From an uncultured delta proteobacterium (lineage in GTDB: Bacteria; Desulfobacterota; Desulfobacteria; Desulfobacterales; B30-G6): a stretch of DNA of 64,000 nt. The notes under the pieces were generated by a model. The model had not been told where the DNA came from and did not search any database. It saw only the letters and a program-made list of their open reading frames with translations. The stretch spans positions 68,382 to 132,381 of the forward strand of contig CAWGLD010000004.1 in the NCBI GenBank assembly GCA_963823335.1, given 5' to 3'. The position numbers were made by a program, and so were the translations under genes. Below, piece by piece: positions 969 to 63,283 of the stretch (positions are counted from its first letter, which is position 1; the number at the start of each line of letters is the position of its first letter).

Positions 969-1009
969 GCGGCGCAGCCGCGTCAAATAAAATCGCTTTG
1001 CGATTTTAT
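969..1009 (+). repeat. bipartite boundary hairpin motif, copy a
   Basis: GCGGC-gca-GCCGC GTCAAAT AAAATCG-ctttg-CGATTTTAT; stop codon (1006-1008) of the minus-strand gene lies inside the AT hairpin. Confidence 0.7.
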
Positions 1010-5059: not shown

Positions 5060-5080
5060 AAAAAGGAGACACTACCTTTC

Positions 5081-6976: not shown

Positions 6977-7734
6977 ACATCGAAAAAATTATGCCCACCC
7001 CCAAAAAAAGACTCGACCTTTCCCTTCTCGACAAAAAGCTCGCACCCACACGGCAGCGTGCCCAGGCCCTGATCCTGGCAGGCAGGGTGCTCGTCAACCA
7101 GGAACCCATGACCAAACCTGGAACCCGGATTTCCGAGGGTGATGCTGTCGTCATCAAGGGATCCGATATGCCTTATGTCAGTCGCGGCGGCATCAAACTG
7201 GCCGAGGCGCTCATCCGATTCCAGATCGATGCCGCCGGCCTGAACTGCATGGATATCGGAGCCTCCACCGGCGGTTTTACAGACTGTCTTCTCCAGAATG
7301 GCGCCTCCCGTGTAGTTGCAGTCGATGTCGGGTATGGACAGCTTGCCTGGAAACTGAGGCAGGACCCAAGAGTTACGCTTCTGGAAAGAACCAATATCCG
7401 CTACCTGAAGATTGAAAAAGTTCCATTCCCAGTCGATCTGGCTGTCATCGATGTCTCTTTTATCTCCTTGAAAATTGTCGTACCTGTTATTCGACAATTC
7501 CTTAAAAGCGATGCCACCGTTGTGACCCTAATCAAACCCCAGTTCGAGGTAGGCAGACATCATGTCGGCAAGAGGGGTGTGGTCAAAGATTCCCTTCTGC
7601 ATGAGGAAGTCACGCGATCCCTTGCGCAGTTTTTTGAAACGGCCGGATTCAAGGTTCATGGTATTGTCCCCTCCCCTATCACCGGCCCTAAAGGAAACAA
7701 GGAATTTCTTTGCCACTTGAAAATTAAATCGTAA
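6973..7734 (+). CDS. tlyA: TlyA-family rRNA 2'-O-methyltransferase (hemolysin A-like)
   Basis: N-terminal S4 RNA-binding domain plus FtsJ-type SAM fold (DIGASTGGFTDCLLQNGA); ATG overlaps dxs stop (ATGA). Confidence 0.85.
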   Translation: MNIEKIMPTPKKRLDLSLLDKKLAPTRQRAQALILAGRVLVNQEPMTKPGTRISEGDAVVIKGSDMPYVSRGGIKLAEALIRFQIDAAGLNCMDIGASTGGFTDCLLQNGASRVVAVDVGYGQLAWKLRQDPRVTLLERTNIRYLKIEKVPFPVDLAVIDVSFISLKIVVPVIRQFLKSDATVVTLIKPQFEVGRHHVGKRGVVKDSLLHEEVTRSLAQFFETAGFKVHGIVPSPITGPKGNKEFLCHLKIKS

Positions 7735-7747
7735 AACGATTTTATTT
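7721..7747 (-). repeat. boundary hairpin motif, copy b (AT hairpin only)
   Basis: AAATTAAATCG-taaaa-CGATTTTATTT; tlyA stop TAA (7732-7734) is in the loop; the GC hairpin is degenerate. Confidence 0.55.
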
Positions 7748-7822: not shown

Positions 7823-7863
7823 GCGACCTAGTCGCATATTATAAAATCGTGTAACGATTTTAT
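7823..7863 (+). repeat. bipartite boundary hairpin motif, copy c
   Basis: GCGAC-cta-GTCGC ATATT ATAAAATCG-tgtaa-CGATTTTAT, immediately followed by GGGAGGAG RBS and the ATG at 7878. Confidence 0.75.
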
Positions 7864-7877: not shown

Positions 7878-9951
7878 ATGAGTCAAGCATTGGACGAACT
7901 GAGAAACATAGCCCTTTTAGCTCATGGCAGTGCCGGTAAAACATCTCTGGCGGAAGCCATACTGTTCAAAGCCGGTATCACCAAGCGTATCGGAAGAGTC
8001 GAAGATGGTAACACCGTTATGGACTTTGAGCCTGAAGAGCTCAAGAGAAATACCAGTATCAGCAGTGGGTTCTGCCAGTATACCTGGAAAAAGCATACCA
8101 TCAACCTCATCGACACACCTGGAGACCAAAACTTTTTCAGTGACACCAAACTCTCTATGCAGGCTGCGGATGCCGTGGTTCTTCTGGTGGATGCCGTCGA
8201 CGGGGTCAAGGTACAAACCGAGCAGGCATGGGATTTTACTGCCGACCTGAATATGCCTTGCATTATTTTCATCAACAAGCTTGACAGGGAACGGGCCGAT
8301 TTTTCCCGCACATTGGAGGATATCTCTAACTGTCTTGACCTGAAGCCGATCACGCTTCACCTGCCCATAGGAAAAGAAGAAACATTCAAAGGTATTGTCG
8401 ATCTTGTCAGCATGAAGTCTTACATCTATGATGAGCAGGGAAACGTCACCAAGGGTGACATCCCAGACGATATGCAGAGCCAGGTCGAGTCCGAAAAAGA
8501 AAAATTGATAGAGGATGTCGCCGAGGCCGATGATGCGCTCATCGAGCGGTACCTGGAGGGGGAAACACTCAGCGATGAAGACATTAAAAACGCCCTGAAA
8601 AAAGGTGTTCTTTCCAGAGTCTTTGTGCCGGTACTGTGTGGCGCTGCCGTAAAAAACATCGGTATCGATACTCTTCATGGACACCATCAACAGCGTCATG
8701 CCATCACCGGAAGATAGTAAACCACGGACGGGCATCGATCCCAAAGATGACAGCAGCATCGAGCGTTCACCTGACCCGGATGAACCCTTTTCGGCTATTG
8801 TCGTTAAAACCATTGCCGACCCATATGCGGGCAGACTATCTATTTTCAAGGTTATCTCGGGCACATTGGGATCAGAAGGAAATATTTACAATTCCTCCAA
8901 AGAAATCAAGGAACGTTTCAACCAGTTACTTACCATTTTCGGCAAAGAACAAAAACCGGCCACTGGGGCAGGCCCCGGTTCCATCGTTGCCGTGGCAAAA
9001 CTGAAAGAGACAACCACAGGAGATACCCTGTGTGATGAAGGCAGTAAAATTCGGTATCAGTGCGCAGAACCACTGCCGACCCTCATTTCTTTTGCACTGC
9101 AACCCAAATCCAAGGGTGACGAAGATAAAATCTTCAGTTCTCTTTCCAAACTCCTCGAAGAGGATCCTGCCTTGAAGCTCGATCGAAACCTGGAAACGCA
9201 TCAGATTCTTCTGTCAGGTGCCGGCCAGGTCCATATCGAAGCCACCGTCGAAAAACTAAAACGAAAATACAATGTCGAAGTGAACTTGAGTACCCCCAAG
9301 GTACCCTACAAGGAGACCGTCAAGAAAAAAGCACGTGCACAAGGCAAACACAAAAAGCAATCCGGCGGGCATGGCCAATACGGCGACTGCTGGATCGACA
9401 TGGAGCCACTGCCCAGTGGGGCTGGTTTTGAATTTGTGGATGGTGTCGTGGGGGGTGTCATACCCAGGCAGTATATTCCTGCGGTGGAAAAAGGAATTAT
9501 CGAAGCGTCCCAAAAAGGGATCCTGGCCGGCTTCCCCTGTGTTGACTTCAAAGTAACCCTGAATGACGGCTCTTTTCATGCTGTTGACTCTTCTGAGATG
9601 GCCTTTAAAATTGCCGGATCACTGGCCTACAAAAAAGCAGCCGAAAGTGCCAATCCCATATTGCTGGAACCGATCATGAAGGTTACCATCACCACCCCCG
9701 ATGAATACATGGGTGATATTATGGGTGATCTGAACGGGCGGCGCGGCAGGGTCCTCGGCATGGACAGTGCCGGTAAATACCAGGTGATCAATGCCAACGT
9801 ACCCATGGCCGAATTCCTCACTTACGCCCCTGACCTGAGGTCCATGACCGGCGGCCGTGGCATTTATACCATGGAATTTTCTCACTATGACGAAGTTCCT
9901 TCACATTTGGTGGATAAAATCATCGAAGCGGTCGCGGCAGAACAAGAATAA
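7878..9951 (+). pseudogene. elongation factor G paralogue with reading frame broken by one extra base near 8676
   Basis: Two ORFs (7878-8717, 8677-9951) together give a colinear EF-G: G1 AHGSAGKTS, DTPGD, NKLD, then ..VLCGAAVKNIGIDTL | MDTINSVMPSPEDS.. continuing in the +1 frame; removing C8676 restores one ~690-aa frame. Confidence 0.8.
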
Positions 9952-9988
9952 CATCGTTTAACGATGCTATCATACGCGACGGTGTCGC
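9950..9988 (-). repeat. bipartite boundary hairpin motif, copy d (degenerate)
   Basis: AACATCG-tttaa-CGATG directly after the TAA stop (9949-9951), then GCGAC-ggt-GTCGC (9976-9988). Confidence 0.5.
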
Positions 9989-11157: not shown

Positions 11158-11198
11158 GCAACGGTGTCGCGTCAAATAAAATCGTTTCACGATTTTAT
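11158..11198 (+). repeat. bipartite boundary hairpin motif, copy e
   Basis: GCAAC-ggt-GTCGC GTCAAAT AAAATCG-tttca-CGATTTTAT; the stop (11187-11189) and last codons (..GIKS*) of the minus-strand gene are encoded by the AT hairpin. Confidence 0.75.
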
Positions 11199-15399: not shown

Positions 15400-15447
15400 G
15401 CAATAAGCGGATAGCAGCTAAGTACTTATAGCTTACAGCTTGGATTC

Positions 15448-25964: not shown

Positions 25965-26011
25965 ATAAAATCGTTACACGATTTCATCGTATGGTGAGGC
26001 GACGATGTCGC
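25965..26011 (-). repeat. bipartite boundary hairpin motif, copy f
   Basis: ATAAAATCG-ttaca-CGATTTCAT ... GCGAC-gat-GTCGC between the ParB-like stop (26027) and the TetR start (25887); the AT hairpin faces the TetR gene. Confidence 0.65.
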
Positions 26012-30103: not shown

Positions 30104-30136
30104 ATAAAATCGCATAACGATTTTATACAACGCGAC
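30104..30136 (-). repeat. boundary hairpin motif, copy g (GC half-site only)
   Basis: ATAAAATCG-cataa-CGATTTTAT ACAAC GCGAC, 24 nt upstream of the MglA-like start; the AT hairpin faces the gene. Confidence 0.6.
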
Positions 30137-32648: not shown

Positions 32649-32653
32649 ACAAC

Positions 32654-36843: not shown

Positions 36844-38285
36844 TCAATTTCCCAGTGAGTCCCATCCGGACGGTCCTTGAGAACAATATTCATGGATGCC
36901 AGCTGTTCTCTGATCTGATCGGCCCTTTGCCAGTTTTTCTCCTGTCTTGCAACCTCACGGTCAGCGATCAATGTTTCAATTAATTTTGCGTCGATTGTTT
37001 CCTGTGCCAGAACAGATTCACGTTGAACATTGAAGTAGACATCCGGCGTATCGCCACCGATGCCCAGCACAGCCCCCATCCGCAGTATTTCCAATCTGAT
37101 GGCGAACAGCGATAACAACACATCCCGGGTATTCATGCTGGTTTCATGCTCATCCATGATACGGTTGGCATGCCTTACGGCATTGAAGATGACGGCGATA
37201 CCGTTGGCGGTATTGAAATCATCATCCATAGCTCGACAAAAATCCTTCCAGAATGGCATGACTGCCGGTGTCGTAGAAGGCTTCTTCACCCCGGCGAGAG
37301 TCTCATCTATTCGAAGAAGCAGGGCATAAATCCGGTCCAGAGCAGTTCGTGACGCCTCCATGGAATCCTGGTTGAAATCAATAGGCTTTCGATACTGTTT
37401 CGAGAGCAGAAAAAGCCTGATGGACTCTGGGTGGTAATGCTGAATGACATCTTTTATCATCCGGAAATTGCCCAGAGACTTGGACATTTTTTCCTTGTCT
37501 ATATTCACAAACCCGTTATGGATCCAGTATCGAACAAAATCACGTCCATGTACCGCCTCTGACTGGGCAATTTCATTTTCATGATGAGGGAATATCAGAT
37601 CTCTGCCACCTCCATGAATATCGAAGGTTTCGCCCAGGTATTTGGCACTCATGGCCGAGCATTCGATGTGCCAACCCGGTCGCCCCTTCCCCCATGGGCT
37701 GTCCCATGACGGTTCACCCTCTTTTGCAGATTTCCAGAGAATAAAATCGAAGGGATTACCCTTGCGGGGGTCTACTTCCACGCGGGCCCCCGGATCCATG
37801 TCTTCCAGATGACGATTCGATAATTTGCCATAGGCATCAAAGGTTTCAACAGCAAAAAAAACATCCCCATCGACCACGTAGGCAACCTTCTTTGCTATCA
37901 GCTTTTCGACGAGTTGAATCACATCGTCAATATGCTCCGTTACCCTCGGCTCAAAACTGGCTCTTTCCACCTTCAGGGCATCCATGTCCCGGTAGAATTC
38001 CTCGATATATTTATCAGCCAGCGCTTTCGGATCCATACCGCTTTCTGCTGCACGACGTATGATCTTGTCGTCGATGTCGGTAAAATTTCTCACGTAGACA
38101 ACGTCATAACCCTTGGTTTTCAAATATCGGGAGATCACGTCGAATACAACCACGGACCGGGCATGCCCAATGTGGCAGGAGTCATAAACCGTTGGTCCAC
38201 AAACGTACATGAGCACCTTTTCAGGCTCAATGGTTTGGAACAATTCTTTCTTCTGGGTTAAGGTGTTATAGATGGAAATGGGCAT
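36837..38285 (-). CDS. cysS: cysteine--tRNA ligase
   Basis: HIGH (CHIGHARS) and KMSKS motifs; 482 aa. Confidence 0.95.
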   Translation of the reverse strand: MPISIYNTLTQKKELFQTIEPEKVLMYVCGPTVYDSCHIGHARSVVVFDVISRYLKTKGYDVVYVRNFTDIDDKIIRRAAESGMDPKALADKYIEEFYRDMDALKVERASFEPRVTEHIDDVIQLVEKLIAKKVAYVVDGDVFFAVETFDAYGKLSNRHLEDMDPGARVEVDPRKGNPFDFILWKSAKEGEPSWDSPWGKGRPGWHIECSAMSAKYLGETFDIHGGGRDLIFPHHENEIAQSEAVHGRDFVRYWIHNGFVNIDKEKMSKSLGNFRMIKDVIQHYHPESIRLFLLSKQYRKPIDFNQDSMEASRTALDRIYALLLRIDETLAGVKKPSTTPAVMPFWKDFCRAMDDDFNTANGIAVIFNAVRHANRIMDEHETSMNTRDVLLSLFAIRLEILRMGAVLGIGGDTPDVYFNVQRESVLAQETIDAKLIETLIADREVARQEKNWQRADQIREQLASMNIVLKDRPDGTHWEIDK

Positions 38286-38357: not shown

Positions 38358-38522
38358 GAGTCAGGGTTTGAGGGGTGGAGGGGTGCGGCTTGCAGGATAA
38401 TAGACAATAAACTGTATATTACTAAACACCTAATAGTCTGCTGTCTACTACTTGTTGTCCGGGTATACCCTCCAACCCATCAAACCTCCAACCCTCCAAC
38501 CCTTCAATCCTCCAACCCTTCC
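38358..38522. repeat. long imperfect hairpin with octamer-unit arms (GGGTTNAN type)
   Basis: GAGTCAGGGTTTGAGGGGTGGAGGGGTGCGG (38358-38388) vs CCGGGTATACCCTCCAACCCATCAAACCTCCAACCCTCCAACCCTTCAATCCTCCAACCCTTCC (38459-38522); the right arm runs into the ispF 3' end (..EGLED*). Confidence 0.6.
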
Positions 38523-39004
38523 TTAAGCAGTGCCACACACATGGCACCAATCCCTTCGCCTTTTCCAAAACAACCAAGTCCCTCATGTGTCGTGGCCTTA
38601 ACATGCATACATGTGGCCGGAACCTCTAATGCATCGGCCATGTTCGACTGCATCTCATCCAAATAGGGTGCGAGCCTTGGTGACTCCGCTATGATAACGG
38701 CATCGGCATTCATAAGTGAAAAACCGTTCTTTTCCAAAAGACGCCCGGTCTTTCTCAACAAGTGAAGACTGGACACGTCTTTGTACTGCGGGTCTGTATC
38801 GGGAAAGAGCCGGCCGATATCTCCCAAATGTGCGGCTCCCAGCAATGCATCGATCACCGCATGAATCAGCACATCCGCATCTGAATGCCCCAGCAACCCT
38901 TTTCCATAGGGTATATCGACACCACCCAGTACCAGTTTTCTTCCCTGGGTCAATTGATGTACATCATAACCCATGCCGATTTTTATCACAGATAAAATCC
39001 TCAC
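38504..39004 (-). CDS. ispF: 2-C-methyl-D-erythritol 2,4-cyclodiphosphate synthase
   Basis: GMGYDVHQL, LLGHSDADVLIHA, ATTHEGLG motifs; GTG start overlapping the upstream TAG by 1 nt. Confidence 0.9.
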   Translation of the reverse strand: MRILSVIKIGMGYDVHQLTQGRKLVLGGVDIPYGKGLLGHSDADVLIHAVIDALLGAAHLGDIGRLFPDTDPQYKDVSSLHLLRKTGRLLEKNGFSLMNADAVIIAESPRLAPYLDEMQSNMADALEVPATCMHVKATTHEGLGCFGKGEGIGAMCVALLKEGLED

Positions 39005-46496: not shown

Positions 46497-46760
46497 AAGA
46501 AGGATTCAAGGATTCCAGGGGTCCAGGGTTCGAGTGAGATGAAGTGAGGCATCAGCTAAATGCTTAAAAATTGTAAAGAGTTAAAAGTTGTGGATTGGAA
46601 ACACAGACGATGATATCCGGTGTTTTGGATTATATGAACAAGAAAAAGCTTCAGGGATTAAGAGAGGAGCTTGGGGATGTAGAGAGAATGCTAAAAGCGA
46701 TGATCAAATCCCTGGAAAACAAACACTTCAATCCTTGAATCCTGGACTCCTTGAACCCTT
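46497..46760 (+). mobile_element. IVS-like palindromic element, family B (octamer arms) with a four-helix-bundle gene remnant
   Basis: Left arm AAGAAGGATTCAAGGATTCCAGGGGTCCAGGGTTCGAGTGAG (46497-46538) pairs imperfectly with CACTTCAATCCTTGAATCCTGGACTCCTTGAACCCTT (46724-46760). Confidence 0.7.
46568..46738 (+). pseudogene. 3' fragment of a four-helix-bundle (23S rRNA IVS protein family) gene
   Basis: The open frame reads ..ELKSCGLETQTMISGVLDYMNKKKLQGLREELGDVERMLKAMIKSLENKHFNP*, matching the last two helices of PF05635-type proteins; the N-terminal half is absent. Confidence 0.6.
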
Positions 46761-48525: not shown

Positions 48526-49012
48526 AAACTAATGAACATCGAACATCGAACGTCCAACATCGAATTTTGAATAAAAAGATAAAGAAACAGGCGTATGATC
48601 TGGAAGAAAGGTTGCTCGAGTATTCGGTGAGAATCGTAAAACTCGTTGAACAACTTCCAAATACCAAGGCAGGCAGTCATATTGCGGGGCAATTGTTAAG
48701 ATCTGGAACTTCACCATACCCAAATCATGGTGAAGCTCAGGCAGCGGAATCCCCGAAAGACTTTATCCATAAATTACGTATTTCATTAAAGGAACTCAGG
48801 GAAACCCAGCGATGGTTAAAATTAATACAGCGAGTACCACTAATTAAAAAGCCTGAACTATTGAAGGATATTATCGAGGAAACTGAAGAATTAATTAAGA
48901 TTTTCGTCGCGAGCATTAAAACTGCGGAAAAGAGAAAGAGATAATTCATTATTGTTTGTTTTTCATTCGACATTGGACGTTCGATGTTCGATGTTGGACG
49001 TTCATCTTTAAA
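48526..49012 (+). mobile_element. full-length IVS-like palindromic element, family A, copy R6 (carries an intact ORF)
   Basis: Left arm 48531-48572 and right arm 48961-49009 are near-perfect reverse complements enclosing the 48567-48944 ORF. Confidence 0.85.
48567..48944 (+). CDS. four-helix-bundle protein (23S rRNA intervening-sequence protein family, PF05635/TIGR02436-like)
   Basis: ..AGQLLRSGTSPYPNHGEAQAAESPKDFIHKLRISLKELRETQRWLKLI.. fits the family signature; 125 aa with no internal Met; the TTG start lies inside the left arm. Confidence 0.8.
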   Translation: MNKKIKKQAYDLEERLLEYSVRIVKLVEQLPNTKAGSHIAGQLLRSGTSPYPNHGEAQAAESPKDFIHKLRISLKELRETQRWLKLIQRVPLIKKPELLKDIIEETEELIKIFVASIKTAEKRKR

Positions 49013-49042
49013 TAACCAAGAAAACCCAACAAACAGGTTATT

Positions 49043-50266
49043 ATGCCGACATATTCATACCAGGCCATTAACGAATCCGGTTCCACTGTCACCGGTGAGG
49101 TCGAAGCCGAATCCACGGACATGGCCAACAACATTCTTTCCGCCAGGGGGTACCTGCCATCACGGGTGGTTGAAAAGGGTCAGATAGTACCCAGTGATTT
49201 TAGCAAACAGCTCAGAGAACGCTTCACATTCATCAAACCGCCTGAACTGATACTCTTTACCAAACAGTTCAAGACACTTATTAAAGCGGGTATACCCATC
49301 TTGAAAATTTTTAAGGTCATTGAAAATCAGACCGAAAACATTGTCTTAAAAGATATGGTCCTGTCTATTTCGCAGGATGTACAGCAAGGGTCCAGTCTTC
49401 ATGACGCGTTCCGGAAACACCCCAAGGCCTTTTCGCCTCTTTACTGCAGCATGTTGCGCGCTGGGGAAGCCAGCGGGGCATTGCCGGAGATACTGGAACG
49501 TCTGATTTATATCCTCGAACATGAGCACAAGATAAAGTCCGAGATTCGGGCAGCGCTTTCTTATCCCATCATCGTTATTTCCTTTTTAGGCATCGCTTTT
49601 TTTGTTCTCCTGACCTTTGTCATTCCTAAATTTGTCACGATTTTCGAAAGATCGAGTGTCGCACTCCCGCTGCCGACACAGATCTGCATGCTGATGTACC
49701 AGGTTCTTGCCAATTACTGGCTGATAATGCTCGTTGGTCTCATTGGCGGCATCGTATTTCTGAACTACTATTTAAAAACCGAACAGGGGCTTTTGGCCAA
49801 AGACACCTTACTGATGCGTCTTCCTCTCTTAGGACCACTTTTTGCAAAAGCCGCCATGGCAAGGTTTGCGAGTATTTTCTCTATCCTGCAGGCCAGTGGT
49901 GTTCCCGTCCTCGACTGCATTCGCATTTTAACGGAAACCATTGGGAATCAGGCTATTTCAAAAGAATTCGCCCTTGTAACAGAACGTCTTGAGGAAGGGC
50001 GTGGACTGGCGGAGCCATTGAAATCCGCTAAGTATTTTCCGCCGATTGTCATCAATATGATCGCCATCGGAGAAGAATCGGACAACCTCGAAGACATGCT
50101 CAACGAAATTGCGTTGCATTACGATTCTGAACTCGAATATGCCATGAAAAAACTGTCCGAGGCCCTCGGACCTTTATTGACACTCGGGCTGGCAGTTGTG
50201 GTCGGTTTTTTTGCCCTCGCGATCTATCTGCCCATGTGGGATATGACCAAGATGAGCGGATTATAA
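49043..50266 (+). CDS. type IV pilus/T2SS inner-membrane platform protein (GspF/PilC family, MshG-like)
   Basis: Two T2SSF repeats, three TM segments, 407 aa. Confidence 0.88.
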   Translation: MPTYSYQAINESGSTVTGEVEAESTDMANNILSARGYLPSRVVEKGQIVPSDFSKQLRERFTFIKPPELILFTKQFKTLIKAGIPILKIFKVIENQTENIVLKDMVLSISQDVQQGSSLHDAFRKHPKAFSPLYCSMLRAGEASGALPEILERLIYILEHEHKIKSEIRAALSYPIIVISFLGIAFFVLLTFVIPKFVTIFERSSVALPLPTQICMLMYQVLANYWLIMLVGLIGGIVFLNYYLKTEQGLLAKDTLLMRLPLLGPLFAKAAMARFASIFSILQASGVPVLDCIRILTETIGNQAISKEFALVTERLEEGRGLAEPLKSAKYFPPIVINMIAIGEESDNLEDMLNEIALHYDSELEYAMKKLSEALGPLLTLGLAVVVGFFALAIYLPMWDMTKMSGL

Positions 50267-50303
50267 AATCTCTCCGCGATTTTATTTGGCGCGATGTTGT
50301 CGC
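50263..50303 (-). repeat. bipartite boundary hairpin motif, copy h
   Basis: ATAAAATC-tctccgc-GATTTTAT TTGGC GCGAT-gtt-GTCGC; the platform-gene stop TAA (50264-50266) is inside the AT hairpin. Confidence 0.7.
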
Positions 50304-50536
50304 TTATAAATGCACGATATAAATTCCTACTTTTAAAATCCTGAGAAACCAGACATACTATGAATATTTCAGATGGTTTCAGAGATCGAATATAGTTTAT
50401 ACCGCTTGTCATAATACTGTTCCGAAAATAGGATGGCGGCATAAGGGGTTGTAGCAGAAAAAAGGTCCTCAATCGGAACGTTTTTCTGACAACCCCTATA
50501 TAACTATATGTAATCATTATTATGCAATAAAAACTA

Positions 50537-50577
50537 GCGACGCAGTCGCGTCAAATAAAATTGCGGAGCAATTTTAT
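50537..50577 (+). repeat. bipartite boundary hairpin motif, copy i
   Basis: GCGAC-gca-GTCGC GTCAAAT AAAATTG-cggag-CAATTTTAT; the loop carries the only GGAG upstream of ATG 50576, which overlaps the motif end; inverted relative to copy h. Confidence 0.75.
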
Positions 50578-51892
50578 GAAGGATATCCGATTCAACATCA
50601 GTCTGTACGTCATTATTCCCGTTATCATCGCGGGTATCTCCATATTGGCTACCATCGCCTCCTTCAACATCACCACCTACTATTTCAAACGCGGTTTTGA
50701 CCCCACATGGCCGGTGGCTTTCTGGGGTAGCATCATGATCATCGTAACAGCTGTTTTTGGTGTTTTAATCGTCAAGTTCATCATCGATCCCATGAAACGA
50801 TTCGCACGAAACACCGAAAATTTAGGCGTACTCGGACGAATGCCCAAAACAGACAAACCGGATGACATGGAACGATTTTCACAACTTTTCGACCAGGTCA
50901 CCGATATTTTGGGTCAAGTGGAGGCCCGGGAGCTATTCCCGAATATCGTGGGCCAGAGTAAAGTCATGCGGGGGGTCTTGAAACAGATTCTCCAGGTTGC
51001 CAAGACGGATTCCACTGTCCTCATTCTCGGTGAGACCGGCACCGGAAAAGAGTTGATTGCCCAAAGTATTCATCAGCACAGCAAGCGAAGGGAAAAGGAT
51101 TTCATTGCCCTCAACTGTGCCGCCATCCCTGAAAATTTGCTTGAAAGCGAATTGTTCGGCCATGAAAAAGGCGCCTTCACCGGAGCTTCTTCCCGAAAAC
51201 TCGGCAAATTTGAAATTGCCCACAACAGCACCCTTTTCATGGACGAAATCGGCGACATGCCCATGGAAACCCAGACAAAGGTATTGCGGGCGATCCAGGA
51301 AAATCAATTTGGTCGCGTGGGGGGTGTCAAAACCATCAAGGTCAACGTTCGTTTTATTACCGCCACGCATCAAGATCTGACATCCCTGGTCAAGCAGGGG
51401 AAATTCCGTCAGGACCTCTATTACCGGCTGAATGTTTTTGCCATCCATCTGCCCCCTTTGCGTGAAAGACGGGAAGATATTCCGCTGCTTGTCGACAGTT
51501 TTCTGGGGAAACAGAATAAACAATTTAACGTAACATCGGAAACCATGCAGCTTCTAACCGCCTATGACTGGCCTGGAAATGTACGTGAACTTGAAAATGC
51601 CATCGAAGCTGCAACCATCATTACTGAAGACGTCATCCAACCCAAACACCTGCCGTCATCTATTACCAACACGTTTGGCAAATCCATAGCAAATAAAATA
51701 GACACGCTTCCTAAAATGAATCTGGATAATCGTATCCATGAGCTTGAAAAAGGGATGATCATCGATGCATTGACCACGACAGGTGGCATCCAGAAGAAGG
51801 CAGCCTTTCTTTTAGGCATCAAGGAACGCAGTTTATGGCATCGGATCAAAAAGTATGATATTGATGCGAGCTCTTTCAAACAACAAATGTAG
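50576..51892 (+). CDS. sigma-54-dependent transcriptional activator, membrane-anchored (2 TM), no receiver domain
   Basis: Two N-terminal TM helices; AAA+ core with GETGTGKE, GAFTGA, and C-terminal Fis-type HTH (..QKKAAFLLGIKERSLWHRIKK..). Confidence 0.88.
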   Translation: MKDIRFNISLYVIIPVIIAGISILATIASFNITTYYFKRGFDPTWPVAFWGSIMIIVTAVFGVLIVKFIIDPMKRFARNTENLGVLGRMPKTDKPDDMERFSQLFDQVTDILGQVEARELFPNIVGQSKVMRGVLKQILQVAKTDSTVLILGETGTGKELIAQSIHQHSKRREKDFIALNCAAIPENLLESELFGHEKGAFTGASSRKLGKFEIAHNSTLFMDEIGDMPMETQTKVLRAIQENQFGRVGGVKTIKVNVRFITATHQDLTSLVKQGKFRQDLYYRLNVFAIHLPPLRERREDIPLLVDSFLGKQNKQFNVTSETMQLLTAYDWPGNVRELENAIEAATIITEDVIQPKHLPSSITNTFGKSIANKIDTLPKMNLDNRIHELEKGMIIDALTTTGGIQKKAAFLLGIKERSLWHRIKKYDIDASSFKQQM

Positions 51893-52989: not shown

Positions 52990-53517
52990 GTGCCCCGTAT
53001 GTCAATAGTACCTGATTGCAAAAATGAAAATGGCTTTTCCCTTGTCGAAATCATAGCTGCTCTGGTCATTGTCGTCATCATCAGCACAGTTGTTATCAGC
53101 CGGTCCGGTTCTTTTACAACCGACCTGGTTTCCCAGACAGAGATCCTAAAAGTCCATCTTCGTCACGCCCAGTCTCTTGGGATGATCGGATCAGATCCAA
53201 GTGCTGTTTATGGTATAAAATGCGACACCAATTTTTATTGGATGTTCAAAGGCATCGATCCGGACCTTAATATCCTTATGCTCACCGATGATCAGCGATA
53301 CAACACCAACAATGACGGCAAACTCGATTTAACCCCAAAAAAAATAGCCATAGGAACCGCTTTCACTGTAATTTTTGACCAGCGGGGGATTCCCTACCGT
53401 TCCTATACAAATGAAACCGACAACGACCCATATTCTGAAGATCTCTTGATTGACGTAACAAAGGCAGGCGATGTCGAGACCATCACCGTAACACTGCACA
53501 CGGGGTTTATACCTTGA
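52990..53517 (+). CDS. minor pilin / pseudopilin with prepilin-type N-terminus
   Basis: ..KNENG|FSLVEIIAALVIVVIIS..; start uncertain (GTG 52990 or ATG 52999). Confidence 0.7.
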   Translation: MPRMSIVPDCKNENGFSLVEIIAALVIVVIISTVVISRSGSFTTDLVSQTEILKVHLRHAQSLGMIGSDPSAVYGIKCDTNFYWMFKGIDPDLNILMLTDDQRYNTNNDGKLDLTPKKIAIGTAFTVIFDQRGIPYRSYTNETDNDPYSEDLLIDVTKAGDVETITVTLHTGFIP

Positions 53518-53924
53518 TGAACAGATTCAAAATGCCTTCCATTTTCAAATCCCAGAAAGGATTTACCCTCCTGGAGATCATTGCCACCCTGATCCTGGTT
53601 GGTATTTCTGCGGCGGTTATGTATCCCGTTATGCGAACAAACCTGATCCGAAGTGCCGAACCCGTAAACCGTTTAAATGATCATCAGCTTCTTATTCAGG
53701 AGATGGACAAATGGACCGGCATTTATCGGGATGAAATTAAAAATAACTCCCTGGACATCGTCAATTTCAAATCAAATGTTGATTCAAATGCCAATTATCT
53801 GGACAGTACATCCTATATCAACAGCTTCAACGGCGGTGCCTATGCCACTCAGGGAACCAATAAGATATTGCGTGTCACTCTGATAAACAACGACCAGACA
53901 CTGGTAGCCTTGTTTGCAGAATGA
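53517..53924 (+). CDS. minor pilin / pseudopilin with prepilin-type N-terminus
   Basis: ..KSQKG|FTLLEIIATLILVGISAA..; ATG overlaps the preceding TGA. Confidence 0.7.
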   Translation: MNRFKMPSIFKSQKGFTLLEIIATLILVGISAAVMYPVMRTNLIRSAEPVNRLNDHQLLIQEMDKWTGIYRDEIKNNSLDIVNFKSNVDSNANYLDSTSYINSFNGGAYATQGTNKILRVTLINNDQTLVALFAE

Positions 53925-53984
53925 CATCGCCCAGCGACGTCATCAAACGCGATCTCGTCGCTTTTTTAAACGAAAGTTTTACAC

Positions 53985-54832: not shown

Positions 54833-57601
54833 ATGAACCTAATTCAAAATTCAACATTAAACATTAAAAATTGCCCCTCTCCACTGGCCAATGCATCTGG
54901 CGCTGTTCTGCTGACAGTGGTGATTATTATCATTATCGTCGGCATGGCGGGTGTTGCCATGTATTCCTTGACCAGCACATCCACTTTTACCCAGTTGTAC
55001 GCCCAGAATGCAACCAGAGCCTATTATCTGGCTGAATCCGGTTTCAGGGTGGTTGCCAGCGAATACAATAATGCCGATGATGACGAGAAATTGGATGTTC
55101 TGGGAAATCTGCATGGGACAACCCTCAGCCTGCCGGGCAATACCGGGCAATTCGATATGAGGCTTTACCCGTACTGGTTTTATGTCAGCAGCGCCTACAC
55201 AGCCAACAGCACCAGCATCAATGTTAAAATACCGGGTGGCACACCTTTGAGAAACCCGGCCGATACCGGCTCCCCCAGGGTATCGCTTCCCAACAGCGGT
55301 TACCTGAAACTGCAGAGCAAAAGCCAGTTGGCTGCCATATCCTCGGTGTCTCCCGGTTCTCCTGCAGATGGCGCTACGATTACCTTCGGTATCAATCCAG
55401 GATTCCCCTATGACATTCAGACCGATGAGGAGCTTTTTCTGGTCTATACGGACAATAACACCACCAGCCAACCAGCGGTTCCCCAAGATGGCAGCATCGA
55501 TTTCCCAGGCACCAATCCGGTTGCCCAGTTACTGCCGGCCCAGAACGGTTCCTTCAGGGTATACAACGAAGACAACGATAAAATGGACTATACCTATTTG
55601 GAAAAATTTCCACCGGCTGTCGATCCCGGGAACCCCCCAACCACCATTACACTGAGCGGCATCCAGCACCAGAACGACGGCGACCCATCCGTGTTCCCGT
55701 TTACCATCGACAACACCTCCGAAATATACTTTGGCCGGAACCTGGCTGTCTTTTCCACCTCCACCTTCGGAACCGGTACCATGGCTGCCAGAAAGACCGT
55801 GGGCAATTATACCGATGTGGGGCTGGATGGCGGTTTTTTCAAGGATAAAGACACCATTTCTTTTGAGAAGGAGATTGGCGATTTCACGCCTACCATGAGC
55901 GATCCGGGACCGGGATATCCTGACCCCATTGAAATCGACACCACCAATAAAACCATTAAACTGGGCGGCAATCTCATCGATGAATACGGTTCTGTCTGGT
56001 ACAAGGGCTATACGGACATCGCCGACTGTATTCAGGGCAACTGCCTTTTGGGCCGGGGTTTTCGGGCTTATTTCGAGTTTACATTTGACAACACGGACAA
56101 TTCCATCGCCAGCACGGATTTCGGCGACGGGTTCACCTTTTCTCTTGTCAGCGGTGCCAATTACACCAATGGTGATACCGGTTTAGGTGGCGAGTACATG
56201 GGATATGCCGGCCCAGGTCTTTCCAGCAACGGACTGCAGCCGCCCAAACTGGCAGTCGAGATCGATACCTACCCGAATACAGGTGCCGGCAGTGTGTGCA
56301 ACGACAGTACTGATAGTCGGCGCGACGATGAGCCTGTGGCCAACCACACCGCCCTGGTTTACTGGGGTGAAGAAAGCGTCGGTTCTATTGATGCTCAGGG
56401 CGGATACATTCGTATCGGATCCGCATCACCTTCCGTTGGGGAGCCCGAGGACTGGAGCTCCTCCCAAGGAACCATCAGCTTCTGGTTCAAACGCGATACC
56501 ATTTTCTACGGTGACGGAAATACGAGCGGTGACAGGCTGTGGGGACAGGACGCCAACATGGAAACCCGTTTTTCCGGCACAACAGGCTCAAATTTTTTTC
56601 TCGACTGGGGTACTGGTGGTGAAGGTTCAATCAATGCAATCAACCCGTTTACCGGGGCTGGCACATGGTACTTTATTGCCATCACATGGGATGATGCAAC
56701 GGATCAATTGAAAGTTTATTCCGGCAATCAAACCACCGTCTCACTTCTTGCGGAAAATCTGGCCTGGACAGGAGATATGAACGCCCTTGGAATAATTACT
56801 GAAAATCTTTTCCTGAACTCCAGCGGTGGCAACAGTTCGAAAAATTTTGCTGCCGATGGTAACGGCTCAGACCTGCGTTACTACAATGTCGCCAGGAGTC
56901 TGTCCGATATAGAAAGCGATTACAAGGTGCGGCGGACCGGCAGTGAAGCCGGCCTGCAGGCCTATTTCCCCTTGCAGGCGGATCTGTTGGATGCCGGCCC
57001 CACCGGCATAGCAGACTCCTCGACCATAGGGAACACGGACTGGTCCACAGACACCATCGCCGCTTTCGATTGTGGAACGGTATTAGCAGTGAAAAGAGCA
57101 ACGTATGACGACAACCGCCATGGCGCCGGCGGCAGCCCCACCACCACCACTCCTCAGAACTCCCTGAACAGCAATAGCGGCAACGGCTATGACGGGTACC
57201 ACCAGGTCACGGGTTCCAGTCCCAACTGGCTTGAAGATGGATCGCCGCACAGACTCCGCATGGAACTGATACGACCTCTCATTCTGGCGGCCGACGGCGA
57301 CATCGACGCGTTCTATGATTACCAGGTAAAAATCTGGATCGACTGCGCCACCTGTTCGGCAGCTGAGCTAGCCCAGTTCAAGGACGTACGGGCGGATTTT
57401 TCGGCCAGTCTTCCACAGATCGAAAAAACCATTAATAGAGGAAACTCCCTGAAAATCGACCCTGCTGATCATCTCGACTTGTTACGTGTCCTGTTCGGAT
57501 TTACCCAGGGTACCGGCGGTGCGACACAGAACATTACCCTTCGCAACCTCGAACTTTATTTTCTGAAGGAATACCCGGTGTCCTACCCGGCTGCATGGTA
57601 A
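54833..57601 (+). CDS. large pilus-associated protein: PilX-like N-terminal anchor, legume-lectin-like domain and LamG-like domain (MshQ/PilY1 functional analogue)
   Basis: N-terminal hydrophobic helix AVLLTVVIIIIIVGMAGVAMY; LAVEIDT (56249-56269) fits the legume lectin beta-chain signature [LIV]-[STAG]-V-[DEQV]-[FLI]-D-[ST]; ..GTISFWFKRD...WYFIAITWDDATDQLKVYSGN.. resembles Laminin_G_3. Confidence 0.65.
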   Translation: MNLIQNSTLNIKNCPSPLANASGAVLLTVVIIIIIVGMAGVAMYSLTSTSTFTQLYAQNATRAYYLAESGFRVVASEYNNADDDEKLDVLGNLHGTTLSLPGNTGQFDMRLYPYWFYVSSAYTANSTSINVKIPGGTPLRNPADTGSPRVSLPNSGYLKLQSKSQLAAISSVSPGSPADGATITFGINPGFPYDIQTDEELFLVYTDNNTTSQPAVPQDGSIDFPGTNPVAQLLPAQNGSFRVYNEDNDKMDYTYLEKFPPAVDPGNPPTTITLSGIQHQNDGDPSVFPFTIDNTSEIYFGRNLAVFSTSTFGTGTMAARKTVGNYTDVGLDGGFFKDKDTISFEKEIGDFTPTMSDPGPGYPDPIEIDTTNKTIKLGGNLIDEYGSVWYKGYTDIADCIQGNCLLGRGFRAYFEFTFDNTDNSIASTDFGDGFTFSLVSGANYTNGDTGLGGEYMGYAGPGLSSNGLQPPKLAVEIDTYPNTGAGSVCNDSTDSRRDDEPVANHTALVYWGEESVGSIDAQGGYIRIGSASPSVGEPEDWSSSQGTISFWFKRDTIFYGDGNTSGDRLWGQDANMETRFSGTTGSNFFLDWGTGGEGSINAINPFTGAGTWYFIAITWDDATDQLKVYSGNQTTVSLLAENLAWTGDMNALGIITENLFLNSSGGNSSKNFAADGNGSDLRYYNVARSLSDIESDYKVRRTGSEAGLQAYFPLQADLLDAGPTGIADSSTIGNTDWSTDTIAAFDCGTVLAVKRATYDDNRHGAGGSPTTTTPQNSLNSNSGNGYDGYHQVTGSSPNWLEDGSPHRLRMELIRPLILAADGDIDAFYDYQVKIWIDCATCSAAELAQFKDVRADFSASLPQIEKTINRGNSLKIDPADHLDLLRVLFGFTQGTGGATQNITLRNLELYFLKEYPVSYPAAW

Positions 57602-57641
57602 TCGAATCGCAAGGCGATTCGATCTGTCGCGGCTTCGCCGC
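57599..57641 (-). repeat. variant boundary hairpin motif, copy l
   Basis: TAA stop then ATCGAATCGC-aag-GCGATTCGAT CTGTC GCGGC-ttc-GCCGC: the same two-hairpin layout, with the first stem sequence diverged. Confidence 0.5.
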
Positions 57642-57803: not shown

Positions 57804-57974
57804 AAAGAGATGAACATCGAGCATCGAACGTCCAACATCGAATTTTGAATGGGAAAAGATGAAGAAATGGGCCAATGATCTTTAATAAAGTCCGCTTGAC
57901 TATTCGTCGGTATTGTTTTTTTCTTTTCATTCGATGTTGGACGTTGAATGTTCGATGTTGGACGTTCATCTTTT
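57804..57974 (+). mobile_element. miniature IVS-like element, family A, copy R7
   Basis: Arms 57804-57852 and 57922-57974; interior GAATGGGAAAAGATGAAGAAATGGGCCAATGATC... Confidence 0.8.
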
Positions 57975-58070
57975 AAATCTTTACTTTGGCATAAATGCAG
58001 TTTGTACTTGATATGCCAATAGATACGATCGATTTTTTGTAAAACGTCATTGTTTTATCGCTTGGGAACC

Positions 58071-58300
58071 AATGAACGTCGAACATCGAACGCTCAACAT
58101 CGAATTTTGAATGGGTATAAATGAAGAAACAGGTGTATGTTGAATGGGAAAAGATGAAGAAATGGGCCAATGATCTTTAATAAAGTCCGCTTGACTATTC
58201 GTCGGTATTGTTTTTTTCTTTTCATTCGATGTTCATCTTTTAAACCTTTTTTGATTCATCATTGGACGTTCGATGTTCGATGTTCGATGTTCATCTTTTA
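58071..58300 (+). mobile_element. IVS-like element, family A, copy R8, containing a nested partial copy of R7
   Basis: Outer arms 58071-58113 and 58259-58300; 58141-58243 repeats the R7 interior plus a truncated arm. Confidence 0.7.
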
Positions 58301-58396
58301 AATATTTACTACGGCATAAATACTGTTTGTACTTGATATGCCAATAGATACGATGGATTTCTTGTAAAATGTTAATTGTTTTAAAGCCGGGGAACC

Positions 58397-58631
58397 AATG
58401 AACATCCAACATCGAACGTCCAACATCGAATTTTGAATTTAAAAGATGAAGAAACAAGTATATGATTTCCTGTCATTCCCGTGTGTTTGCTCCTTAGCAG
58501 GAATGGGACGAGAGTCCAGTGGACACTATATATGCACGGCTTACCCGAATTTTTTAAGAAGTTGCTAACTTCAGCATTAAATATTTCTTTTCATTCGACG
58601 TTGGATGTTCGATGTTGGACGTTCATCTTTT
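58397..58631 (+). mobile_element. IVS-like element, family A, copy R9 (longer interior)
   Basis: Arms 58397-58440 and 58586-58631; the interior begins AAAAGATGAAGAAACAAGTATATGATTTCC (the ORF 5' homology). Confidence 0.75.
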
Positions 58632-58660
58632 AAAAAGTTCTGTAAAGGAATTTAATTAAA

Positions 58661-61045: not shown

Positions 61046-61086
61046 GCGGCAAGACCGCGCTTCATAAAATTGCGGAGTGATTTTAT
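61046..61086 (+). repeat. bipartite boundary hairpin motif, copy j (degenerate GC hairpin)
   Basis: GCGGC-aaga-CCGC GCTTC ATAAAAT-tgcggagtg-ATTTTAT; the loop is nearly identical to copy i (TTGCGGAG). Confidence 0.6.
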
Positions 61087-61090
61087 TATT

Positions 61091-61258
61091 ATGTACAATA
61101 AATATCTCAAAACATTCGACTTCGAAGTCGGTCATCTCATTAAAAGTCCCTGCAAGAACTGCAGGCATTATTATATCTTCCCTCGATGCATCGCTGAATG
61201 CACACTTCTGGATAAAATACAGGATGTGTTGTCGACGGTGGTATCCAGTACACGATAA
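61091..61258 (+). CDS. small Cys-rich hypothetical protein (55 aa)
   Basis: MYNKYLKTFDFEVGHLIKSPCKNCRHYYIFPRCIAECTLLDKIQ..: CxxC plus two further Cys; preceded by motif copy j; coding status uncertain. Confidence 0.35.
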   Translation: MYNKYLKTFDFEVGHLIKSPCKNCRHYYIFPRCIAECTLLDKIQDVLSTVVSSTR

Positions 61259-61266
61259 ACAGGTTT

Positions 61267-61408
61267 AAAAATGATGAACGTCGAACATCGAACGCTCAAC
61301 ATCGAATTTTGAATGGAGAGATGAAAAAACAGATGCGGGACTCGGGTTTAACTATTTCTTTTTATTCGACGTTGGACGTTGGATGTTCGATGTTGGACGT
61401 TCATCTTT
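61267..61408 (+). mobile_element. miniature IVS-like element, family A, copy R10
   Basis: Arms 61267-61316 and 61361-61408; interior AGAGATGAAAAAACAGATGCGGGACTCGGG. Confidence 0.8.
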
Positions 61409-61487
61409 AAGATCTTTTTAAACCCAAATCGGATACCTGCAAGAAAGCTTTATTCAATTGGCATAAATGATACTCCGATAGAAGTTT

Positions 61488-61599
61488 AAAAATGATGAAC
61501 GTCGAACATCGAACGCTCAACATCGAATTTTGAATGGAAAGATGAAAAAACAGATGCGGGACTCGGGTTTAACTATTTCTTTTTATTCGACGTTCATCT
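61488..61599 (+). mobile_element. miniature IVS-like element, family A, copy R11 (right arm truncated)
   Basis: The left arm and interior are nearly identical to R10; the right arm is reduced to TTTTTATTCGACGTTCATCT. Confidence 0.75.
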
Positions 61600-61644
61600 C
61601 AAGAAAACTTACTACAGCAAAAATCCTGGCTACTGCTCAGAGCT

Positions 61645-61682
61645 TACCCTCCGAACCTCCAACCCTACAAACCCCCGACCCT
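61645..61682. repeat. octamer-unit arm, candidate partner of 60838-60878
   Basis: TACCCTCCGAACCTCCAACCCTACAAACCCCCGACCCT; its reverse complement resembles the 60838 arm; abuts the minus-strand stop at 61681. Confidence 0.4.
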
Positions 61683-63242: not shown

Positions 63243-63283
63243 GCGACAAGGTCGCGTCAGATAAAATTGTGACACAAATTTAT
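63243..63283 (+). repeat. bipartite boundary hairpin motif, copy k
   Basis: GCGAC-aag-GTCGC GTCAG ATAAAATTG-tgaca-CAAATTTAT; the stop of the 63280-63843 gene is inside the AT hairpin. Confidence 0.7.

Follow-up and report, generated by a model that had tools for sequence, protein, structure and literature searches.

A dispersed two-hairpin repeat at gene borders in Desulfobacterales, best filed as a variant of repetitive extragenic palindromes

The 64,000-nt stretch of DNA analysed here, to which we refer as the window, derives from an uncultured delta proteobacterium of the Desulfobacterales (GenBank assembly GCA_963823335.1, contig CAWGLD010000004.1, forward-strand positions 68,382 to 132,381). 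Between a pilC-like gene and the gene of a sigma-54 activator, it carries two inverted copies of a short motif composed of a G+C-rich and an A/T-rich hairpin (henceforth, the GC and AT hairpins), and further copies lie beside other genes of the window, fusA and a TetR gene among them. The motif is a real dispersed two-hairpin repeat whose AT hairpin abuts stop codons, ribosome-binding sites or promoters with a precision of one base. How repeats of the repetitive extragenic palindrome (REP) type reach gene ends, and what role they play there, is a long-standing question. The family described here constitutes an unusually clean natural experiment on it, with a weak and a strong hairpin in fixed orientation at about 200 independent sites and the weak one turned to coding signals.

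Anatomy and distribution of the repeat

The unit spans 41-42 nt and is oriented, reading A-GCGRC-N3-GYCGC, a 5-nt linker and then ATAAAATCG-N5-CGATTTTAT; we define as top strand the one on which the GC hairpin is read before the AT hairpin. The GC hairpin consists of a 5-bp G+C stem (GCGRC/GYCGC) with a 3-nt loop, and its fourth pair alternates between A-T and G-C, compensated every time. The AT hairpin is an A/T-rich structure of 9-10 bp, ATAAAATCG(Y)-GNA-(R)CGATTTTAT, in which the stem ATAAAATCG/CGATTTTAT contributes 9 bp and the loop is 5 nt long in most copies, with outer bases that mostly pair (T-A or C-G) to leave a triloop. An A occupies position -1 in 95% of copies, preceded by five A/T-rich bases, and a T follows the AT stem at +1 in 65%, with no consensus beyond that position. 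In the window's clade the linker is GTCAA or GTCAG, which together with the last C of the GC hairpin reads CGTC. The consensus folds into both hairpins on either strand, at -13 to -14 kcal/mol.

To locate copies systematically, a covariance model comprising both hairpins was built from eleven listed full or near-full copies aligned in one orientation, and the window was scored with it at every position without filters. This procedure yielded 12 full-length copies with scores of 41-60 bits (E <= 1.4e-8, the E-values of this home-made model being rough) in addition to one copy of the AT half at 7721-7747; all remaining matches were reverse-strand echoes of the AT palindrome or had E > 0.01. The original prediction, made from the letters of the window, had listed 12 copies. 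Their sequences are present at the positions it gave, including the isolated AT half, which corresponds to a full copy at the orthologous site in another species, but one full copy (53921-53961, minus strand) had been overlooked. Neither half of the motif is explicable by chance: GCGACNNNGTCGC occurs five times in the window against 0.02 expected, and AAAATCG-N3-9-CGATTTT four times against 0 expected. All window copies are intergenic or overlap ends of open reading frames (ORFs) only, and Pfam scans and translations confirm the neighbouring genes and the gene ends quoted below. Rfam gave no match in the window at gathering score and none on extended copies in 15 loci, no tRNAs were found in the window, and no earlier description was found in the literature by motif strings or for Desulfobacterales repeats.

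The repeat is not confined to the window, and the predicted REP-like family does exist as dispersed palindromic repeats in nine species of metagenome-assembled genomes (MAGs) and on metagenome contigs. A scan of 185,579 species genomes with the pattern GCGNCNNNGNCGCGYCARATAAAATYG, which admits one linker type and hence underestimates the taxonomic range, returned 59 stretches, all of them from nine related MAG species classified as delta proteobacterium, Desulfobacterales or Thermodesulfobacteriota, and this linker-specific pattern had no match in the other species genomes. The covariance model identifies about 100 full copies in these 59 genome loci. The window's own genome is in neither of the collections scanned; its closest relatives there are 81-91% identical, and five of the genome loci are orthologous to parts of the window at that level of identity. 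Metagenomes were scanned with a pattern that fixes both AT arms and half of the GC hairpin and leaves the linker free, giving at least 120 stretches and at least 112 copies in at least 100 loci, on contigs of 36-61% G+C. Metagenome results refer here and below to the matches listed, and with these included the family numbers at least about 210 copies beyond the window. In the metagenome copies the linker is mostly GTTTC, GTTCT or GTTAT, reading CGTT, so that the CGTC reading appears as a trait of the window's subfamily; CGTC is found in about 60% of genome-loci copies (35 linkers GTCAA, 22 GTCAG, and others), 2 nt from the stem. Loci outside the window are cited by L numbers.

Placement at gene borders, pairing and inheritance

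Placement was quantified on gene models consisting of the longest ORFs, with orthologous sites collapsed. At the 90 sites in genome loci, the AT end abuts a stop codon in 32 cases (19 at offset -3 and 6 at offset 0) and has a start codon within 30 nt in 16, the corresponding counts for the GC end being 1 and 7. The 110 metagenome sites show the same polarity, with 23 stops (16 at -3) and 21 starts at the AT end against 0 and 9 at the GC end. Measured from the AT end, the median distance to an ORF border is 15 nt in genome loci and 18 nt in the metagenome set; measured from the GC end, it is 188 and 135 nt, respectively. Taken together, stop codons abut the AT end at 55 of the 200 non-redundant sites (about 27%) and the GC end at one. 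A stop at -3 is the TAA at element bases 2-4, and a stop at 0 forms the tandem stop TAATAA. A Shine-Dalgarno sequence with a start codon is present within 30 nt of the AT end at 33 of 205 non-redundant sites and of the GC end at 6, and TTGAC(A/T) lies within 22 nt of these ends at 13 and 2 sites, respectively. In many 5' cases the Shine-Dalgarno sequence begins 0-4 nt past the element, and where the ATG is no more than 5 nt away (window copies 50537 and 61046, the orthologue of the latter, L047 and L050) the loop itself reads CGGAG. The AT arm also supplies C-termini ending in -IKS* or -MKS*. On a contig of 58% G+C (L073), the copy at 5849-5889 exactly fills the carA-carB junction: the carA frame extends across the GC hairpin to a stop at the TAA in the left AT arm, and the ATG of carB lies 4 nt past the right arm.

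These data bear out most of what had been proposed for the window (Table 1). The rule that the AT hairpin faces the abutting gene, originally stated for 12 of 12 copies, is replicated in both outside site sets, where neither random orientation nor random position was seen at the 90 and 110 sites, with the nuance that the 25965 copy adjoins neither a start nor a stop codon and turns its AT end to a promoter-like box. Stop codons inside or directly against the AT hairpin are confirmed by window translations and recur in the two outside sets. All seven assigned stops (1006, 7732, 9949, 11187, 50264, 57599 and 63280) are correct, and we add an eighth at 53922; the four assigned starts (7878, 30080, 50576 and 61091) are likewise correct, the last of them opening a conserved 57-aa ORF. 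Translation also agrees on the -IKS* tails of tlyA and the SPL-like protein, which end in LKIKS* and GIKS* because the arm is read in frame as ATA AAA TCG TRA. Shine-Dalgarno sequences do occur in some loops, as had been noted, and the CGGAG loops of 50537 and 61046 are indeed the only sequences of that kind at their sites.

Table 1. Copies of the repeat in the window, and the separate element between the inverted pair, with their gene context and orthologous sites
Position	Strand	Feature	Score (bits)	Gene context	Orthologous site
969..1009	+	Full copy	59.6	Between convergent genes; TAA stop (1006-1008) of Bax1-I-like gene 1006-1866(-) is element bases 2-4, in AT arm; T7 after GC hairpin on minus strand	L046:789-829
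7721..7747	.	AT hairpin only, GC half decayed		tlyA/FtsJ-like gene 6973-7734 ends LKIKS*, TAA in loop; pairs with 7823, GC sides facing, around 75 nt containing a TATAAT box	L005:7908-7948 (full)
7823..7863	+	Full copy	55.3	AT end 2 nt before GGGAGG Shine-Dalgarno of fusA (ATG 7878); pairs with 7721	L005:7690-7730
9948..9988	-	Full copy, variant stem AACATCG/CGATGYT	53.7	fusA TAA stop (9949-9951) is element bases 2-4	L005:5565-5604
11158..11198	+	Full copy (covariance model)		SPL-like gene 11187-12284(-) enters AT arm by 8 nt and stops at loop TGA (GIKS*)	Only a relic at the L005 site
25965..26011	-	Full copy, long 14-nt linker	44.9	AT end faces TTGACA promoter-like box of TetR gene 25237-25887(-); GC end 16 nt from stop of 26027-27004(-)	L048:4029-4069, L072:1512-1552
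30104..30136	-	AT hairpin intact, GC half degenerate	41.7 (match extended to 30179)	AT end 10 nt before GGAG Shine-Dalgarno and 23 nt before ATG (30080) of small GTPase-like gene	
50263..50303	-	Full copy, left member of inverted pair	53.3	TAA stop of pilC-like gene 49043-50266 is element bases 2-4	
50396..50500	+	Independent conserved element of about 105 nt, outside the repeat		Within the 233-bp spacer of the inverted pair	
50537..50577	+	Full copy, right member of inverted pair	58.9	Last two bases are the AT of ATG (50576) of sigma-54 activator gene; loop CGGAG gives GGAG 7 nt upstream of this ATG	
53921..53961	-	Full copy, diverged but compensated AT stem (ATGACATCG/CGACGTCAT)	41	TGA stop of 53514-53924 is element bases 2-4, inside AT arm; T6 after GC hairpin; start of next gene 24 nt further	L052:7937-7977, L030:1023-1063 (both with consensus stem)
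57601..57641	-	Full copy, variant fully compensated stem (ATCGAATCG/CGATTCGAT)	51.7	TAA stop of 54833-57601 ends on first base of element	L052:4213-4256
61046..61086	+	Full copy, two G.T wobbles on GC-to-AT strand	47.1	4 nt upstream of ATG (61091) of conserved 57-aa Cys-rich ORF; loop CGGAG	L052:1025-1065
63243..63283	+	Full copy	54.6	TAA stop of 63280-63843(-) is element bases 2-4	L002:1699-1742 (decayed)

Pairing is kept in both hairpins. In the genome loci 96-98% of stem positions form Watson-Crick pairs, and in the metagenome set 98.7% of cells are paired, with seven pairs that carry changes on both sides, a result equalled in none of 500 shuffles. The left arm of the GC hairpin, which the metagenome search left unconstrained, pairs in 495 of 505 cells and occurs as GCGGC/GCCGC in 47 copies and as GCGAC/GTCGC in 44. 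Almost all copies of the window recur at orthologous sites of species that share about 85% identity in coding DNA. In 24 pairs of sites matched by their AT-side flank, the element is 90% identical, as compared with 66% for the adjoining 40 nt of non-coding sequence on the GC side and 88% for the mostly coding AT side; this comparison includes L020/L015, a non-orthologous pair matched through another repeat. The copy at 53921 has ATGACGTCG/CGATGTCAT where L052 and L030 have ATAAAATCG/CGATTTTAT, amounting to two compensated pairs and one G.T, and its stop has changed from TAA to TGA with compensation of the partner base, so that the stop codon is kept. Additional compensated stem variants are seen at 57601, 9948 and L017:3883. 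Sites that lack a copy in some species carry relics (L005 relative to window 11158, L015 relative to L035:3829), and L039, compared with L017:3883, has only a relic and yet retains the -MKS* tail. Copies are inherited vertically at orthologous sites and are constrained in pairing, mostly also in sequence, with decay in some lineages. An apparent presence/absence series formed by L020/L015 and five other loci was rejected, the difference being in reality an element of about 190 nt with 20-nt terminal inverted repeats, which is considered separately below.

Several features distinguish the two strands of the element. On the top strand the triloop reads GNA in 48 copies and TNC in 9, and single mismatches in the AT stem are G.T in 12 cases and A.C in 2. 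The GNA/TNC ratio is the same at stops, at starts and at sites that are neither, and we consequently rejected the notion that loop orientation follows gene direction. The GNA loop, the tolerance of G.T, the A at -1 and the linker all keep to one strand of the element, be it sense or antisense to the gene, and this independence argues against a purely mRNA-level explanation. The oriented features reflect the element itself, through common descent or the recognition of one folded strand, rather than a uniform function in mRNA.

Most copies are single. Among the 12 close pairs of neighbours, seven are head-to-head, three head-to-tail and two tail-to-tail, so that the arrangement with GC ends facing, on which the original prediction had remarked, is the commonest one. 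The proposal that the 50263/50537 pair is a mobile unit akin to a REP doublet forming a hairpin (REPIN) does not hold: such a unit should conserve both the spacing and the spacer of its doublet, and head-to-head spacers measure 52, 75, 85, 108, 163, 177, 233 and 323 nt, with unrelated contents. The 50263 copy belongs to the pilC stop and the 50537 copy to the start of the sigma-54 activator, each being tied to its own gene, and the spacer between them harbours a separate element. The repeat also fails as a miniature inverted-repeat transposable element (MITE), given that the hairpins at either end of the 41-nt unit have nothing in common; terminal inverted repeats would be provided by pairs, but their interiors are unrelated, and no empty site was found that could reveal a target-site duplication.

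In the spacer element, a promoter-like TTGTCA-17-TAGGAT precedes a long imperfect hairpin (AGGGGTTGT..ACAACCCCT). The element recurs with 94-97% identity at L009:3683-3787, L036:3651-3752, L038:1178-1281 and L118:4304-4416 in unrelated flanks, and is thus more alike across species than coding DNA, which is only about 85% identical. At these other loci a copy of the bipartite repeat flanks it on one side or the other, or is absent altogether. No Rfam family matches it (50200-50650, E <= 1), and it could represent a gene for a small RNA or else a small mobile element.

Relation to known repeats and possible role

As a short imperfect palindrome that is extragenic, clade-specific and present in many copies, the repeat has the attributes of a REP. 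REPs have been sorted into GTAG- and CGTC-tagged super-families (Di Nocera 2013, PMC3733652). The latter are described as having an unpaired CGTC (or TGTC/CCTC) at one end, an 8-9-bp stem starting with A-T, a 4-5-nt loop and a CCA tail; head-to-head dimers predominate, tail-to-tail dimers are rare and no transposase is linked (PMC3733652). The motif studied here shares a 9-bp stem that begins with A-T and T-A and has a 5-nt loop, dispersal as an extragenic palindrome, the predominance of head-to-head pairs with tag ends facing, and, in the 1.1 Mb searched, the lack of a linked transposase; part of its copies also have a CGTC-like tag on one side of the stem. It recalls in particular the CGTC-3 repeats of A. 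tumefaciens, whose head-to-head dimers have small stem-loops at the spacer ends (PMC3733652), a position matched by the GC hairpin next to the tag. In contrast to CGTC REPs, its tag lies 2 nt off the stem and reads CGTC only in the window's clade and mostly CGTT elsewhere, the CCA tail is missing, and the G+C hairpin is obligatory, being present in almost all copies. Its placement is also strongly polarised to ORF borders, at 5' as well as 3' ends. REP termini have been reported to provide the stop codon of flanking ORFs often, and REPs between convergent genes to lie less than 20 bp from both ORF ends (PMC3733652). The motif is found in Desulfobacterales, and the text of PMC3733652 contains no 'delta', 'Desulfo' or 'Geobacter'. 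On balance, the motif resembles CGTC-tagged REPs with an extra GC hairpin and is best filed as a REP variant, which extends the host range of CGTC-like REPs to the Desulfobacterales. We know of no mobilising enzyme for CGTC-like REPs.

Other systems are more distant. In common with the REPs and bacterial interspersed mosaic elements (BIMEs) of E. coli, the repeat forms intergenic stem-loops concentrated at 3' ends, many within a few nucleotides of the stop, that are transcribed within the upstream mRNA. Unlike them, it holds the stop codon inside, at a fixed base, combines two different hairpins of which the weak one is always gene-side, has many copies at 5' ends, and comes with neither a GTAG tag nor, in the 1.1 Mb searched, a cognate REP-associated tyrosine transposase (RAYT). 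GTAG before the AT stem was never seen in the genome loci or in the metagenome set, the latter having G-T-T/C-N-N there. REPINs and their RAYTs (Bertels & Rainey 2011, PMC3116915) are likewise clade-specific, vertically inherited and persistent over species divergence, and form inverted doublets of which single copies can be remnants, as window 7721 has lost its GC half; they differ from the motif in its unconserved doublet spacing and spacer, its predominance of single copies and the lack of any RAYT found flanked by its units. Read outward from the gene, the G+C hairpin also resembles an intrinsic terminator, in that T comes next in 95% of copies and the window's clade has a T/A-rich stretch at this place, and several window copies are picked up by a simple terminator scan. 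Unlike a terminator, however, the stem has only 5 bp, the U-tract is mostly absent in the wider family, and the same tail is present in all contexts, 5' ends and divergent pairs included. A terminator tuned to its context was rejected: the A/T content of the flank beside the GC hairpin is equal at stops, starts and other sites, which indicates that the tail is part of the element itself, with no adaptation to 3' ends. A promoter inside the element was also discarded, since no consistent -10 box accompanies the reverse-strand linker TTGACG and the key A at position 2 is missing from TTTTAT. DNA-uptake sequences, dif/attC-like sites and sigma-54 promoters were dropped on account of their unlike sequences and the strictly intergenic location of the copies.

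A mobilising enzyme was sought with phmmer, using E. coli RayT (from NC_000913) against all ORFs in 1.1 Mb of genome and metagenome loci. Two Y1 transposase genes were found, neither flanked by the motif, and mobilisation by a RAYT in trans, as originally suggested, is therefore unsupported. The first (L001:401-1375) encodes a 324-aa protein with Y1_Tnp and Bac_DnaA_C (helix-turn-helix) domains, and the nearest motif is 6.2 kb away. At E <= 1e-20 the family counts 3930 relatives, one of them from Desulfosarcina sp. BuS5, and identities of 60-86% extend over thousands of Desulfobacterales-type sequences; the L001 gene has no repeats on its flanks and looks like a domesticated single-copy gene. 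No motif was found in 35 kb of contigs carrying relatives of this protein at 74-76% identity. The second (L073:9850-10804) is a RAYT of the classical kind that matches E. coli RayT at E = 2e-45, has ordinary GTAG REPs (GTAGGGTGGGTTGAACC...) on its flanks and is the only phmmer match in the metagenome set; the bipartite copy in carA-carB lies about 4 kb from it. A regular expression for YHV..R...HxHLL motifs gave no match.

We consider it somewhat more probable than not that the motif is a long-resident REP-class repeat, persisting vertically and co-opted piecemeal at gene borders. As TAA is present in both arms of the AT hairpin and only this end of the unit is A/T-rich, copies have become part of gene borders, and three forms of this are seen. 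The stop codon is given by the AT arm, as TAA at bases 2-4 or as a loop TRA after I/M-K-S; a Shine-Dalgarno sequence comes directly after the AT hairpin or resides in its loop, which can evolve such a sequence or a TGA or TAA stop; or the AT hairpin takes the position of an UP element, upstream of a -35 box. Polarity would then be the outcome of a selection filter, by which only the weak AU hairpin, meltable by a terminating or initiating ribosome, is tolerated next to coding signals, and the stable G+C hairpin only where a distance of some 25 nt or more to the stop or start keeps it clear of the ribosome footprint. The idea builds on E. coli REPs that lie under 16 nt away from the stop, which stall ribosomes and lower translation (Liang, Rudd & Deutscher 2015, in the account given in PMC12306157). 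The hypothesis that follows contrasts ribosome-accessible with ribosome-blocking structure. At 3' ends, the transcribed hairpin pair would probably act as a 3' stem-loop protecting the mRNA end, with weak intrinsic termination where a T-run follows; at 5' ends and inside operons, it would likely form a hairpin in the 5' untranslated region or between cistrons, able to couple the translation of neighbouring genes. No clean empty site emerged from flank-to-flank BLAST and alignments, every 'absent' orthologue being a decayed relic, and past mobility is thus deduced only from dispersal.

Several further observations weigh against co-option of a resident REP as a complete account. At the non-redundant sites, stops in frame with the TAA of the element (-3 or 0) number 41, against 6 in frame B (-11 or -13), a frame bias beyond what random insertion and ORF extension would give. 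A selection filter accounts for orientation near borders yet leaves the closeness to borders unexplained. For both features a preference for TAA or an A-tract as target, or a factor dedicated to placing copies, is possible. TTT follows the GC hairpin at only 37 of 205 sites, UCC/UCU being as common. The RayT search of 1.1 Mb, conducted on incomplete clade genomes, identified no mobilising enzyme. Finally, every locus outside the window was found through the motif itself, with metagenome AT arms fixed by the pattern, and the gene models are crude, relying on longest ORFs rather than on a trained gene caller.

Alternatively, the unit could be dedicated gene-border punctuation, read by a trans factor (an RNA-binding protein, an RNase or a termination/3'-end factor) that defines mRNA ends, with the stop embedded to couple translation to 3'-end formation and copies kept by selection for function and not as a legacy of mobility. 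The stop is placed to the exact base, lying at -3 in 35 of 200 sites, and this speaks for such a system, as do orthologous copies as conserved as coding DNA, compensatory changes that keep hairpin and stop codon alike, conservation of sequence as well as pairing over hosts of 36-61% G+C (partly through ascertainment), and the canonical terminators not seen at the other convergent junctions of the window. Yet about half of the sites lie off 3' ends, some at 5' ends or upstream of promoters, others between divergent gene pairs or distant from any ORF; the oriented features ignore gene direction, so that the mRNA at stops carries the 'wrong' strand; copies decay freely in sister species and are not replaced; and there is no general U-tract. 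We accordingly regard punctuation of this kind as unlikely. The odds are poorer for a true REP/REPIN-RAYT system, in which a once-per-genome Y1 (HUH) transposase copies the units as single-stranded DNA and inverted pairs are mobile REPINs. GNA triloops form very stable DNA mini-hairpins, and this loop, the G.T tolerance and the conserved unpaired tag are typical of single-stranded DNA recognition; head-to-head is the commonest close arrangement, and one clade genome (L001) has a Y1_Tnp and DnaA_C gene. The GTAG tag is nevertheless missing, pair spacers are unconserved in length (52-323 nt) and content, no motif lies within 6 kb of the L001 gene, whose family is widespread and whose close relatives reside on contigs devoid of the motif, and the RAYT of L073 is flanked by ordinary GTAG REPs with the bipartite copy elsewhere. 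CGTC-type REPs, moreover, are reported to lack a transposase (PMC3733652).

It is conceivable in principle, but in our estimation highly improbable, that the repeat is a duplex-DNA site for a global regulator or an abundant protein, be it nucleoid-associated, gyrase or integration host factor (IHF), the AT palindrome acting like an UP element or operator beside promoters. Gyrase and IHF bind to the REP/BIMEs of E. coli (PMC3733652), the palindrome arms are conserved in sequence, and at 13 sites a TTGACA box comes directly downstream of the AT hairpin, compared with 2 for the GC end. Diverged copies (53921, 57601, 9948 and L017:3883), however, keep their pairing through double substitutions, which fits a folded single strand better; most sites are at stops or Shine-Dalgarno sequences and few at promoters; and a symmetric dimer site has no need of an asymmetric GNA triloop. 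Hardly more probable is a clade-wide gene-border system of which the repeat would be the cis element, with a trans-acting protein that recognises the folded top strand and sets the AT end on stops and ribosome-binding sites; the Y1-transposase/DnaA helix-turn-helix protein of Desulfobacterales is one candidate for placing or maintaining copies. Were this the case, stop codon, 3'-end hairpin and re-initiation signal in operons would be combined in one portable cassette, and the placing protein would explain the bias of 41 to 6 between frames, which passive insertion and selection would not. Whatever its origin, the repeat bears on the annotation of uncultured sulfate-reducer genomes, in that it sets true stops and starts, small ORFs (61091-61264) and -IKS tails.

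Further repeats and neighbouring genes

In 27 of 225 copies a conserved extension is present 5' of the GC hairpin (L087, L110, L116, L119, L128, L157, L067, L143, L145 and others), consisting of a stem GCGAAAG..CTTTCGC around zero to two more hairpins, followed by ATAGGAATTTTAGCC; the resulting composites reach about 250 nt. One extension module is related to a repeat with three copies in the window (3678-3713, 11026-11061 and 31180-31215) and has no Rfam match. The composites look like mosaics of modules, and the association with other repeat modules is reminiscent of dRS3 and the Neisseria intergenic mosaic elements (NIMEs).

The element of about 190 nt mentioned above has 20-nt terminal inverted repeats (CTAGAAGCCATCTCAAAAAA..TTTTTTGAGATAGCTTCTAG) and occurs at L020:~6240-6428, L015, L040:777-, L002:924-, L142, L067 and L181. 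In L020 its position is the TA at a bipartite copy's AT end, and its removal with one TA restores CGATTTTAT; from its sequence, it resembles a MITE that targets TA.

Small repeats, both tandem and dispersed, are unusually abundant in the genome. A second intergenic repeat, commoner than the one described here, is built of the 7-nt units GAACATC, GAACGTC and CAACATC and their complements, and is found in the window at 4881-5067, 10863-11116, 32651-32827, 36683-36853, 48527-49018, 57805-58640 and 61269-61610. It mostly forms inverted arrays a few bases off gene ends, for instance AAAAGATGAAC(ATCGAAC)n..ATTTTGAATG and its mirror, which can be read as tiny ORFs (MNIEHRTSNIEF*) in unconserved frames. 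Short-period intergenic arrays of 8-nt units (CCTCCAAC) and of 7-nt units (GCTGATA, GCTCATA) are present at 38461-38535, 46717-46759 and 61640-61682, and at 4945-4975 and 15405-15445.

Two of the genes beside the repeat merit mention. The fusA gene (EF-G, 7878-9951) is divided into two overlapping ORFs by a 1-nt insertion near 8671, where the L005 ORF is intact at 690 aa; the split could be an assembly error, a pseudogene or a frameshift. The 57-aa Cys-rich ORF at 61091-61264 (MYNKYLKTFDFEVGHLIKSPCKNCRHYYIFPRC...) shares about 95% nucleotide identity with its counterpart in L052 (reverse strand, about 850-1020).

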